Source: Polyangiaceae bacterium UTPRO1
Lineage (GTDB): Bacteria; Desulfobacterota; Binatia; UTPRO1
NCBI GenBank assembly: GCA_002050235.1
Contig: MWST01000027.1
Span: 25,155 to 89,154, forward strand
DNA length: 64,000 bases
Direction of reading: 5' to 3'
Both the position numbers and the translations under genes were made by a program. Positions 43,655 through 46,447 of the stretch are shown in pieces. The first letter of the stretch is position 1, and each line of letters starts with the position of its first letter. The notes under the pieces were generated by a model, which worked only from the letters and a program-made list of their open reading frames with translations, was not told the DNA's origin and made no database searches.

Positions 43655-44046
43655 TCCCCGGTAGCTCAGTTGGTAGAGCGTTCGGCTGTAGCAATGCAGC
43701 CTCGTCGGGAAACCGGCGAGTGAAAAGCGGGTGAATTCAGGGAAGCCTAAGTGCCAAGCGAGGCAGGCTGCCGAGAAGCGGTCGCGAGGGAAGCACGCCG
43801 ACGGCCGGTTGTCGGCAGCCTGCCGGGCATACGGGAACCGTGAGCCAAGCCCCCCAATGACCCGGTCGCGAGGCCGGCAGGGTGGGGGGAAGGTGCAGAG
43901 ACTAGGGAGTGACGAAAGAATAATCTCCCCGCGAGCGCCCGCCACCTACGTCCGCATGGATACGGTGATGAGATAGTCCACGCCCGTCGGAAACGGCGGG
44001 ACGACGTGTAACCGAATGGTCGCTGGTTCGAGTCCGGCCCGGGGAG
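43655..44046 (+). tRNA. tRNA-Asn(GTT) interrupted by a group I intron (exons 43655-43689 and 44009-44046)
   Basis: Spliced exons give a perfect 73-nt cloverleaf: acceptor TCCCCGG/CCGGGGA (U1-A72) plus G73, anticodon arm ttcgg-ctGT|Taa-ccgaa, T arm gctgg-ttcgagt-ccggc. Confidence 0.95.
43690..44008 (+). ncRNA. Group I self-splicing intron, 319 nt, no internal ORF
   Basis: P1 ggctgt/gcagcc with U-G at the 5' splice site; P2 with GAAA loop; P3 gcgggtg/cgcccgc; P gaattcagggaa; Q aaccgtgagc; R gtgcagagacta; S gagatagtcc; P7 gacta/tagtc; P9 with GAAA loop; P9.0 acg/cgt; terminal G. Confidence 0.94.
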
Positions 44047-44086
44047 CTATTTTTCTGTCACGCCAAGTCGCGTGACCGGATGTTGA

Positions 44087-44130
44087 ACGAGACCCCGAGG
44101 GCAGCACGCTTCTCGGGGTTTCGTCTTTCT
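44087..44130 (+). terminator. Rho-independent terminator downstream of tRNA-Asn
   Basis: Stem acgagaccccgag / ctcggggtttcgt followed by ctttct. Confidence 0.65.
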
Positions 44131-44327
44131 GGTGCCGTTATGTGGGGTTGCGCGTGTGGGTGATGTGCGCGGCAGATTTTCTGGGAGCTGCGAGGAGAGC
44201 GCTGGGAGCACGTAGTGGACGACGTTGGGGGCTCGCGGGGCGTTCTCGGCGGCGGATCGTCCTCGAGAATCAGTTTTCTCTTCGGGGTGCCGTTTTACTC
44301 GAGCGACCGGGTGTTGAACGCAGGCTC

Positions 44328-45236
44328 TCACGACTCGGGCTCGAAGTAGTCGCTGTCGATCTTCGGCACGCGCAGCGTCCAATGGCTGACGCCGACGCCG
44401 TGCTCGATCATCAGCTCTGCGAGGCGGCGACCGTCGACGAGCACGATCGAACCGGTCCGCACCTTCTCGGCCGTGGTGTACGCGTCGCCAGTGAACTTCG
44501 ACGTCGTGAGGAGCACGCCCTTGTCCGCGCCGCGCGTCGTGAGCGCGCCGATGAAGTCACGCACGACTGGGCCGCCCACGGGCTGCTGCCAGCGCTTGGC
44601 CTGAACGTAGACCTTCTGCAGGCCAAGGCGGTCGAGCGAGATGACGCCGTCGATGCCGCCGTCGCCAGAGCCGCCGACTGCCTGCAGTTCCTGGCGGCTC
44701 AGACCGTAGCCCATGGCGTGCAGCAGATCGAGGACGAGCCGCTCGAAGAAGCCGGGCGTCTCACGGCCGATGAGCTCGAGCAGCTCCGAGCCCACGCTGT
44801 CGCGGATCTCGCGCAGCGAGATTTCGATACGGTCCTCGGGCGTTGCGACGACGCTCGTCTCGGGCGAGACCTTGTCGTCGGGTTTCCCGCTGACGTCTTC
44901 CTCGTCATAGGCGTGGGCCAGCTTCGCGACGAGATCGGCGGGGAGGCCCTGCGGATATTCTTTAGCCAGGGCCAGCCCCTGCGGTGTGATCTGCCAGACG
45001 CCTCGCTGCACCGACTGTGAGAGGCCCGCGCGCTTGAGTCGATCGTGCGCCCAGCCGTTGCGGTTCGCGTAGACGGCCTGGACGCCGCTCGGCACGCGCT
45101 CGGCACGTTCATCGACGGTCAGCTCGAGCGCGTCGGCGACACCTTCGTGGGCCTCGCGCGTACGCACAGGCGTGCCTCGATCGGCGAGCAACCGGAGCAG
45201 CGGCGAGATGAAGCGGTCGAAGGACGGAACGGGCAT
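44328..45236 (-). CDS. mrr: Mrr-family modification-dependent (type IV) restriction endonuclease
   Basis: N-terminal Mrr_N (NRNGWAHDRLKRAGL..RGVWQIT); catalytic FFERLVLDLLHAMGYG, GDGGIDG, VYVQAKRW, GVLLTTSKFT. Confidence 0.95.
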   Translation of the reverse strand: MPVPSFDRFISPLLRLLADRGTPVRTREAHEGVADALELTVDERAERVPSGVQAVYANRNGWAHDRLKRAGLSQSVQRGVWQITPQGLALAKEYPQGLPADLVAKLAHAYDEEDVSGKPDDKVSPETSVVATPEDRIEISLREIRDSVGSELLELIGRETPGFFERLVLDLLHAMGYGLSRQELQAVGGSGDGGIDGVISLDRLGLQKVYVQAKRWQQPVGGPVVRDFIGALTTRGADKGVLLTTSKFTGDAYTTAEKVRTGSIVLVDGRRLAELMIEHGVGVSHWTLRVPKIDSDYFEPES

Positions 45237-45269
45237 GGCTCCCCAGCGGGTCGCATGGATTCTACACGC

Positions 45270-45890
45270 TGGGCAAGCCCCGCGCAGGCCCATCCGGCGC
45301 ATCAAGCGCTCGACCGTGCAGCGGGCCACGTGAATCCCTTCGCGCCCAAGCTACCGCCAGACCTTGTCGGCGCCCTAGACGCGAAAATGGGTCTCCCAGA
45401 CGCGCCGGATCGCGCTGCCGTACCTTGTGCGTATAGTACGTCGACGGAGCGATCGGCAGCTGCGCGCAGATCGACTCGACTCCGTCGCCGTCGCGATGGT
45501 CGTCGATGAACGTCGCCATCACCTCGGTCGGCGGTCGAGCTCCGCCTGGGCGAAAAACGCGGACGCCTTGCGCAGGATGTCGTTGGCGCGCCGCAGCTCA
45601 CGATTCTCGCGCTCCAGCTCGCGCAGCCGGAGTCGCTCGTCCGTCGTCAGGCCCGAGCGTTTCCCATCATCCCGCTCTCGCTGCCGCACCCATTTCCGCA
45701 GCGTCTCCGCTGTGCAGCCCATCTTCCCCGCGATCGACTTGATCGCGGCCCACTGCGAGTCGTGCGCTTCCTGCTGCGCCAGCACCAGCCGCACCGCTCG
45801 CTCCTTCACCTCCGCTGAAAACTTACTCGGTCGTTCCATGGCTCCCTCTCTCTCAAAGAAAGGAGCCTCCGACAAAACCGGGGCGGTTCA
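45270..45890 (-). mobile_element. Truncated IS3-family element (IS51/IS629-like): IRL, intact orfA, broken orfB
   Basis: IRL TGAACCGCCCCGG at 45890; orfB fragments [23 protein letters not shown] and [17 protein letters not shown] with an internal deletion; no DDE domain and no IRR. Confidence 0.92.
45519..45839 (-). CDS. IS3-family transposase OrfA
   Basis: [62 protein letters not shown]. Confidence 0.95.
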
Positions 45891-45907
45891 ACGCTCCTCG
45901 GCGAGCT

Positions 45908-46324
45908 TCATTTTGCCGAAGGCCCGCAACCGGTAGGTCGGACACGCGCGCGTAGCCGATGTACGTTAGCGCGCCGACGCCTCGTAATCGGCGTCATCCG
46001 CCCTGCGTGCATCGACGGTAGCCCCCACGCCGCCCGCTGCTCCTCCCGCGTCCCCGCGCGCGCCACCGCCCGCTGCGTCCGCCCGGACATGGGCTTCCGG
46101 CCGTCGACGGCTTCGAGGCGCAGGACGGCCTCCTGCAGATCGGCTGCAGGCTGCCGGACGCCGAGGAGCTGCGTGACCTGCGCCCGGGTGCGCCGCAACT
46201 TGCGCGCGAGGGTGGCTCTGTGTGCGACCTCGCCTCGCTCGACGGTGCAGCTCCCGTCTCGGTTTTCGTGGCGGACCCGGGCGCCATCGCCGGCGCTCGT
46301 GATGACGAGCGCGCGTAGTTTCAT
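45908..46324 (-). pseudogene. Degenerate HTH protein of a type found in recombinase-carrying integrative elements
   Basis: LARKLRRTRAQVTQLL..AADLQEAVL..EEQRAAW resembles the LARxxGVTRARVTQxxxLxxLAPDIQExIL family (recalled); truncated by the IS3 IRL side. Confidence 0.45.
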
Positions 46325-46358
46325 GCGCGTGGCGCTGTTCCCGCTCGCCTGGACCGGT

Positions 46359-46447
46359 ACCTACGGCCGCATGGTGACGGTGATGAGATAGTCCACGCCC
46401 GTCGGAAACGGCGGGACGACGTGTAACCGAATGGTCGCTGGTTCGAG
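46359..46447 (+). repeat. attR-like copy of the intron 3' end plus tRNA-Asn 3' exon
   Basis: 46377-46447 identical to 43962-44032 (71 bp); the upstream 18 bp has 3 mismatches; the acceptor-stem part is degenerate. Confidence 0.95.

Follow-up and report, generated by a model that had tools for sequence, protein, structure and literature searches.

A probable remnant of a foreign integrative element in the group I intron-bearing tRNA-Asn gene of a Binatia genome

The window analyzed here is a 64,000-nt stretch of contig MWST01000027.1 (positions 25,155 to 89,154, forward strand; GenBank assembly GCA_002050235.1), a part of the metagenome-assembled genome (MAG) of Polyangiaceae bacterium UTPRO1, which belongs to Binatia according to GTDB. 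The locus under study consists of a tRNA-Asn(GUU) gene split by a group I intron, a second, incomplete copy of the 3' part of this gene located about 2.4 kb downstream, and a small island enclosed between the two copies. The island contains an intact mrr restriction gene, a remnant of an IS3-family insertion sequence (IS), and a fusion pseudogene that includes the tail of a large serine recombinase (LSR) gene.

The 5' exon of the tRNA gene (43655–43689, plus strand) consists of 35 nt and ends with U35, the 319-nt intron (43690–44008, plus strand) is inserted between anticodon positions 35 and 36, and the 3' exon (44009–44046, plus strand) contains 38 nt. The joined exons were folded by ARAGORN as a canonical 74-nt tRNA-Asn(gtt). 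The intron was recognized with the complete Rfam model RF00028 (model positions 1–253; window positions 43680–44000) with 49.1 bits and E = 1.4e-10, the gathering score being 50; the introns in L032 and L033 scored 73.7 and 74.5 bits. The features that define a group I intron were found, namely a P3–P9 core, a U at position −1 paired with G in P1, a terminal G, and exons joining into a tRNA. When ARAGORN was run on the uncut window, the gene (43655–44046) went uncalled because of the 319-nt intron. No second tRNA-Asn gene was found in the genome (an 89% complete MAG), and standard annotation would list this genome as one without tRNA-Asn. The intron-bearing tRNA-Asn gene is conserved in 17 of the 19 genomes of the family as well as in a second family of the class. 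The intron family itself is widespread, with at least 119 metagenome loci and occurrence in several families of the class, and its P5 and P8 vary in length. One genome of the same genus (G004) carries an intronless tRNA-Asn gene (L023, contig C212) at the same syntenic locus, as defined by the upstream gene, trailer hairpin, GNAT acetyltransferase gene, and ubiB; this is explained either by intron loss in G004 or by polymorphism within the genus.

Bacterial group I introns in the anticodon loop are known from cyanobacterial tRNA-Leu(UAA) and tRNA-fMet, from Azoarcus tRNA-Ile, and from Agrobacterium tRNA-Arg. Our intron resembles them in its small size, the lack of an open reading frame (ORF), the position in the anticodon loop, the U–G pair at the 5' splice site, and the terminal G, as well as in its apparent vertical inheritance within a clade with sporadic loss (as in G004). 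It differs from them in the host gene, tRNA-Asn(GUU), in the insertion site between positions 35 and 36, and in its occurrence in what appears to be a Myxococcota-like, high-GC lineage. No report of a group I intron in tRNA-Asn was found in the literature.

Self-comparison of the window showed that the 3' part of the split gene is present twice in direct orientation. The proximal, attL-like copy 1 (43944–44032, plus strand) begins with the 65 nt that close the intron (P8, J8/7, P7', P9, and the terminal G) and continues through 24 nt of exon 2 (44009–44032) as far as the T-loop; its P8 has the genus-typical form (GTCC..GGATACGG). The distal, attR-like copy 2 (46359–46447, plus strand) has a deviating P8 followed by J8/7, P7', P9, the terminal G, and exon 2 to the T-loop, and its left edge abuts the LSR remnant. 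The core of the repeat is identical in 71 of 71 positions (43962–44032 and 46377–46447), and the 18 bases to the left of it contain three mismatches (43951, 43960, and 43961). Weaker similarity widens the pair to 43939–44043 and 46354–46458 (105 nt, 92% identity). Copy 2 is devoid of the 3' strands of the T-stem and the acceptor stem, i.e., of the final 20 nt of the tRNA.

The same arrangement was found in at least seven independent assemblies. JGI, NCBI, and ENA contigs (L161–L164, L166–L168, and L174–L177) were 100% identical to the window over the covered stretches, and several of them spanned both copies. Logan contigs from four sequencing runs all ended at position 43991, the branch point expected in a k = 31 graph if the 71-nt core is repeated. 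The repeat arrangement did not arise from faulty assembly of this MAG. Thus, the direct repeat described by the first-pass annotation of this DNA was confirmed by sequence comparison and by independent assemblies, and the content ascribed to it, from P8 to the T-loop, agrees with the RF00028 match and with the fold of the exons.

The surroundings of the gene were compared with those in related genomes. On the left, a conserved host gene coding for a 340-aa protein without a Pfam family (42568–43590, plus strand) is situated directly upstream of the tRNA gene in all six same-genus relatives whose locus extends that far (73–80% identity). On the right, the syntenic anchor is the ubiB/ABC1 kinase gene (46516–47961, minus strand; Pfam ABC1, 4.6e-57). 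In all eight same-genus relatives the locus is uninterrupted and has the order tRNA-Asn, TCGAG, a conserved GC hairpin with a T-run, a GNAT acetyltransferase gene, and convergent ubiB; this answers the proposal to look for an empty site in relatives. In none of these eight genomes is the intron 3' end duplicated, and a survey of 19 family members and 37 intron-bearing members of the class showed the second copy in the window genome only. The GNAT gene of about 540 nt, present in eight of eight relatives (e.g., L003 at 1900–2540, L004, and L005), is cleanly absent from window positions 46479–46515, and the distance between the hairpin and the ubiB stop codon is just 40 nt or so.

The two copies of the tRNA 3' part are followed by different trailers. 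After the functional tRNA gene comes a trailer with two hairpins (44047–44327), beginning with CTATTTTTCTGTCACGCC..., which is the 3' flank travelling with mrr; it shows no similarity to the trailers of relatives (alignment z of about 0). Copy 2 is followed by a 13-bp hairpin (GCGGCCCCGGAGA GCGA TCTCCGGGGCCGC; 46448–46478) homologous to the terminator located after tRNA-Asn in relatives, with z values of 1.8–5.8 against the conserved hairpin of the eight genomes. When the aligner was given the tRNA 3' end together with the trailer, it skipped in copy 2 exactly 20 nt, TCCGGCCCGGGGAG+TTCGAG. In the closest relative the sequence is ...GGGGAG TTCGAG AGCGGG..., as against ...GG TTCGAG AGCGGC... in copy 2. 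The best interpretation of copy 2 is that it represents the gene's native 3' end, which would have lost the 3' strands of the T-stem and acceptor stem later, between two (T)TCGAG repeats.

Foreign DNA after the working gene and native DNA after the displaced fragment are typically left behind when an element recombines with a tRNA gene and puts its own sequence in place of the 3' end. A foreign origin of the segment between the repeats is supported by its absence from all eight same-genus relatives and by a GC content of 0.63–0.69, below that of the flanks (0.72–0.78). As judged from these comparisons, the island evidently has a hybrid gene, apparently functional, at its left end, with the native 5' exon, most of the native intron, and a foreign trailer behind them; at its right end it evidently has the displaced 3' part of the gene, still adjoining its native terminator hairpin. 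The duplicated segment appears to include at least the stretch from intron P8 to the tRNA end, i.e., at least 105 nt, 65 of which belong to the intron. Since it starts within the ribozyme, the incoming DNA would have had to carry the 3' third of the ribozyme together with exon 2. In our view, a foreign integrative element entered the 3' part of the intron-bearing tRNA-Asn(GUU) gene by recombination in an ancestral member of the lineage, and the locus is what erosion has left of it; we give this reading a probability of about 0.7. The first-pass annotation had proposed a tRNA-gene island formed by integration, whose attP carried the 3' end of a ribozyme. The foreign segment, the repeat, the empty sites, and the swapped trailers speak for such an island, from which the integrase is missing. 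As for attP, at least 65 nt of ribozyme were evidently duplicated by recombination, and the extent of attP is not readable from copy 2, which is edged by a deletion.

This deletion becomes apparent from the remains of genes next to copy 2. Among the cargo named in the first-pass annotation, the intact mrr and the IS3 remnant stand; what was called a helix-turn-helix (HTH) remnant turned out to be a fusion pseudogene. The fusion ORF (45908–46324) combines the last 27 or so codons of an LSR (46240–46321, minus strand; BLASTP E = 2e-5) with the C-terminal half of a gene designated here as X (46025–46243, minus strand), joined in frame and in their native order and orientation. X codes for an HTH protein of about 150 aa; the fragment was assigned by tblastx (67–68% identity over 73 aa) and by the contexts of its homologs. 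The LSR tail (46321–46240) encodes ...LRALV(ITSAGDG)ARVRHENRDGSCTVE and matches residues 486–505 of the 521-aa LSR of contig L034. Compared with its 95% identical counterpart in contig L038, which represents a sister lineage, the fusion ORF shows 21 substitutions (9, 10, and 2 by codon position) and a frameshift; by these signs, it is a pseudogene.

Copy 2 begins where the LSR gene body should continue; therefore, its left edge is taken as a secondary deletion junction and not as the limit of an att arm. With such an edge, the homology may originally have extended further, and the sequence does not reveal where the crossover lay. In L038, the junction of the intron fragment with the LSR tail is present and the IS3 insertion is absent, so the junction is old and predates the split of the two lineages. 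The start of the L038 contig in the k = 31 graph implies that two copies exist there too. The intron fragment of L038, ACGGCCGTATGGATACGGTGACGAG, has one of the three P8 mismatches, T to G (43951/46366). The other changes are private: AT to TG in the window, and two changes in L038, one of them in the otherwise invariant J8/7. By this comparison, when the lineages of L038 and the window separated, the two copies were probably distinguished by no more than one base within the visible 56 nt. Two of the three P8 mismatches being private to the window lineage, they point to decay of neutral sequence after insertion and mostly not to a foreign allele. The suggestions that the divergent P8 came from another intron-bearing allele and that P8 polymorphisms would define the crossover are thus weakened: just one mismatch out of three is also found in L038, the other two arose later, and the copy is bounded by a deletion.

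The near identity of the copies at the time of that split would also fit a duplicate made within the same genome. In this case, the native tRNA 3' region would have been duplicated locally by slippage or unequal exchange, the mrr, IS3, and LSR DNA would have been inserted afterwards, and no element carrying intron sequence would be needed. The trailers argue against it, as the foreign one follows the functional tRNA and the native-like one follows the defective copy, and a later insertion would have to hit exactly the last base of the tRNA. Nor did any relative possess both copies without the cargo, an outcome that the first-pass annotation had named as contrary to its proposal and that was seen in none of the genomes and loci screened. 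We regard local duplication as most improbable.

No integrase of any kind was detected in the island when all its ORFs were compared with Pfam. In the whole genome, PF00589 was matched by XerC, XerD, and one partial sequence on contig C31, all of them outside the island; PF00239 and PF07508 were absent, and no serine recombinase was found beyond the tail of about 27 codons. The LSR belongs to a module of a DUF2924 gene, an ORF of about 60 aa, the LSR, and X, which is intact in contigs L034 (3694–6462) and L037 (728–3544), where X lies directly downstream of the LSR. X overlaps the LSR stop codon, belongs to no Pfam family, and gave only a weak match to a PHROG 'recombinase' (phrog_14161, E = 2.3e-5); it may be an accessory or directionality factor of the LSR. 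To our knowledge, no LSR module containing X has been characterized. Compared with these modules, the island keeps only the 27 or so LSR codons and, of X, the C-terminal half. It has lost DUF2924, the att sites, and the catalytic, recombinase, and zinc-ribbon domains, and nothing in it demonstrates that this LSR once integrated the island. Two other candidates were rejected. A start resembling that of serine recombinases, 'IGYARVS' (at about 45950, minus strand), is intergenic, also occurs in L038, and is followed by nothing recombinase-like. A split integrase of the SSV type does not fit either: circular permutation of the island places the repeat and the mrr 3' flank before the LSR tail, with no LSR N-terminus and with a stop codon at the junction.

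As the agent of integration, we lean slightly towards a tyrosine-type integrase which acted on an attP with captured tRNA sequence and has since been lost. The principal alternative is an insertion of the Campbell type by RecA, in which circular foreign DNA contained a related host's intron-bearing tRNA-Asn gene, in part or as a whole, acquired, for example, through imprecise excision of an LSR element. It would require no att site in the intron and would produce a structure identical to that of site-specific integration. The only recombinase trace is of the serine type, which leaves the 105-nt repeat unexplained; the distal copy is truncated on the left, so that the entire gene may once have been included in the homology; and the 71/71 identity of the core includes a position variable within the genus (ACGACG vs ATGACG), which suggests a very close donor. 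Against such an insertion, no plasmid or element with a tRNA-Asn gene was found in IMG/VR and PLSDB; in PLSDB, the island was matched in its IS3 part only. Integrase-mediated capture at tRNA genes is also far commoner in natural genomes than homologous Campbell insertion. An insertion by RecA is considered unlikely.

A search for further elements of this kind covered 154 intron-bearing tRNA-Asn loci, about 140 of them from other lineages, with 373 kb of downstream sequence. They were collected from a metagenome scan for the intron/exon-2 junction (at least 119 loci) and from genomes. Apart from the contigs of the window lineage, no repeat of at least 14 nt of the intron-3'/exon-2 segment occurred among the 154 loci; the BLAST screen returned one 21-nt repeat of exon 2 alone (L058). 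A motif scan, in which XerC and XerD served as the positive control, found no tyrosine-recombinase motif beside the 154 loci. In IMG/VR, neither the intron/exon-2 junction nor the junction of the tRNA end with the foreign trailer was matched. A scan with a junction pattern gave zero matches in metagenome contigs and one match in genome contigs (L039), which was due to chance, since it lies in a coding frame of an alphaproteobacterial MAG and has no RNA-family match. Genomes G253 and G111, considered as carriers of partial intron copies, proved to have intact genes with a different P8, and the Mrr homologs of 83–90% identity gave no lead to an intact island, every one of them being in another context. 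Viral contigs L040 and L041, which have the intron core motif, contain unrelated phage introns inside coding sequence. In L041 (IMGVR_UViG_3300005662_000094), four separate group I matches occur within 2.3 kb (1622–3891), in a stretch resembling psbA by eye. No related active element able to mobilize the island was detected in any collection searched, and the proposed search of phage, plasmid, genome, and metagenome data for the intron segment near an integrase yielded none.

These results bear on the idea that the island derives from a dedicated element specialized for intron-bearing tRNA genes, with an attP/attB crossover inside the group I intron, which would move intron segments between alleles. 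Several observations are in line with it. The identity block begins 47–65 nt upstream of the 3' splice site, and the crossover of tRNA-targeting tyrosine integrases lies, according to what Williams reportedly stated in 2002, usually near the 5' end of the identity block. The T to G change at 43951/46366, being common to the window and L038, could be an allele brought by the element. A junction like that of attP exists in contig L165 (ENA ERZ23500300, scaffold_2385), which runs from X' and the P8 variant of copy 2 through the core to the tRNA 3' end, the foreign trailer, and mrr. It thus joins the left side of copy 2 to the right side of copy 1, as would be expected of a 2415-nt excised circle or a tandem copy. 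The other end of L165, however, switches from the island IS3 to the second IS3 copy of the genome within a common stretch of 100 nt. The contig threads repeats, and the assembler may have produced its attP-type join by passing through the core in collapsed form. Further points against a dedicated element are the absence of an integrase, the decay visible in the two private P8 mismatches, the deletion at the left edge of the distal copy, and the failure to find a second case in the loci from other lineages, the 37 genomes of the class, IMG/VR, and PLSDB. A specialized element, as proposed by the first-pass annotation, is hence doubtful.

Recombination between the two repeats would yield a tRNA-Asn cloverleaf with two mismatches in the acceptor stem and one in the T-stem. 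Excision would damage the tRNA-Asn gene, as predicted from copy 2 without its last 20 nt, and with three stem mismatches in the recombined tRNA the island is effectively locked in. A more far-reaching interpretation is that the 2.4-kb block is still mobile and loops out or is amplified in tandem via the 71-nt core, with an attP consisting of the ribozyme 3' third and exon 2, and that it is a self-stabilizing passenger of an addiction-like nature. Excision would then leave behind a crippled and possibly sole tRNA-Asn gene, and the ancestor would be the first case in bacteria of an integrative element shown to carry ribozyme segments and to be able to exchange them. We hold this to be decidedly unlikely.

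Several points weigh against our preferred reading, the remnant of an integrative element. The agent of integration had to be deduced, because no tyrosine-type integrase or its fragment is present in the island or beside the 154 loci. The sole recombinase trace is apparently the tail of a serine recombinase, a family which neither needs nor makes long direct repeats. The putative deletion at the left limit of the distal copy leaves both the extent of the homology and the crossover unplaced. The likeness of the copy 2 trailer to the native hairpin appears only moderate, with z of 1.8 for one relative. Look-ups via ubiB and the upstream gene returned the occupied form only, and since an empty site was not encountered in any conspecific genome, the insertion is deduced from other species. 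The MAG is also only 89% complete.

With this reading, the following course of events can be proposed. An element with a copy of the tRNA-Asn 3' part would have recombined with the chromosomal intron-bearing gene. The later decay is visible in the sequence. A deletion joined the tail of the LSR gene to P8 of the distal copy before the split from L038, and an internal deletion joined the LSR tail to gene X. The insertion of IS3 and IS-adjacent deletions stripped most of the cargo, the host GNAT gene disappeared, and the distal copy lost 20 nt between the two (T)TCGAG repeats. What is left is an intact mrr among dead fragments, with no recombinase.

Tyrosine integrases produce islands within genes for tRNA and tmRNA according to a scheme reportedly given by Williams in 2002. 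Our locus is similar to such islands in that it occupies the 3' part of a tRNA gene whose 3' end was supplied anew by element DNA, and in that a displaced partial copy is left at the far end; the cargo is likewise foreign, lower in GC, and absent from relatives. It is different in that the island has no integrase, has shrunk to 2.4 kb, and has a distal copy without the last 20 nt, and also in that the target gene is split, so that the repeat extends into a group I intron for 65 nt. A database of tRNA/tmRNA-gene islands, Islander, is cited in PMC11915505.

The state of decay also recalls cis-mobilizable elements (CIMEs), decayed integrative elements that keep att sites and have lost the recombination module. 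They are represented by the relatives of ICESt1 and ICESt3 in Streptococcus thermophilus. As in CIMEs, att-like direct repeats flank the island, there is no integrase, excisionase, or conjugation module, and the cargo genes are few. Unlike CIMEs, one att copy is damaged, no active relative is known that could mobilize the island, and the recombinase candidates in the genome are limited to XerC, XerD, and the partial PF00589 match.

The first-pass annotation stated that no case of an attachment segment with intron sequence had been described. This holds for bacteria and for group I introns, no such counterpart of an attP-borne tRNA intron having been found in the literature, but not for archaea: in Caldiarchaeum subterraneum, the attP of an integrative element carried a tRNA-Thr intron and delivered it on integration (Sugahara et al., 2012; PMC3293823). 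The archaeal case is comparable with ours, as the tRNA segment borne by the element includes an intron, so that integration can exchange or deliver intron DNA (PMC3293823). It differs in that the introns there are short, of the bulge-helix-bulge type and spliced by protein, vs a ribozyme here, a pNOB8-type integrase is present, and the repeat is situated at the 5' part of the gene (PMC3293823).

If the locus originated by integration, an element using a split tRNA gene must copy a part of the ribozyme along with the exon, and each integration would make a hybrid intron, which is a plausible, undocumented route of exchange for segments of bacterial group I introns. Such islands would escape programs that search for islands by means of tRNA calls and integrases. 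The locus also provides a clear example of an island fixed by damage to the distal att copy. With one decayed instance in one lineage, the general importance is limited.

The intact cargo gene, mrr (44328–45239, minus strand), codes for a predicted type IV restriction endonuclease of 303 aa. Its product, as judged from full-length Pfam matches, is a complete protein with an N-terminal winged-helix domain (Mrr_N, PF14338, 1.6e-23) and a PD-(D/E)xK domain (Mrr_cat, PF04471, 6e-35). Homologs of 83–90% identity occupy other genomic contexts. The gene together with its 280-nt 3' flank with two hairpins (window 44044–45275) recurs at 80% identity in unrelated Logan contigs (L169–L172), next to IS elements, a WapI-like gene, and a Fic-like gene. 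From this distribution, mrr with its 3' flank seems to behave as a small portable defence cassette. Within the flank, motifs TCGNGNGACCGGRTGTTGAACG and GTTTNNTCTTNNGGGTGCCGTT occur twice each, at 44068–44139 and 44273–44320, with the order swapped.

The IS3-family element (45277–45890, minus strand) was identified by Rfam RF01497 (97.8 bits), Pfam HTH_Tnp_1, and alignment to the copy on contig C25. It retains the left inverted repeat at 45890, orfA (45519–45839), and the ALIL frameshift pseudoknot (45445–45561). Its orfB has a 53-nt internal deletion and stop codons and ends at 45277, and the right end of the element is missing. The element is a remnant and not a complete insertion sequence. 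Its left end severs a gene of which the first seven codons (MKLAEER) remain at 45891–45911 (minus strand); this gene is uninterrupted (121 aa) in L038. A solo left inverted repeat of IS3 (TGAACCGCCCCGGTTTTGTCGGAGCCTCC) was found at 34762–34790, about 400 nt downstream of tRNA-Arg(ACG) (34282–34356), and a further 28-nt copy of it is present on contig C10. The trace at 34762–34790 looks like that of another decayed IS or island next to a tRNA gene.

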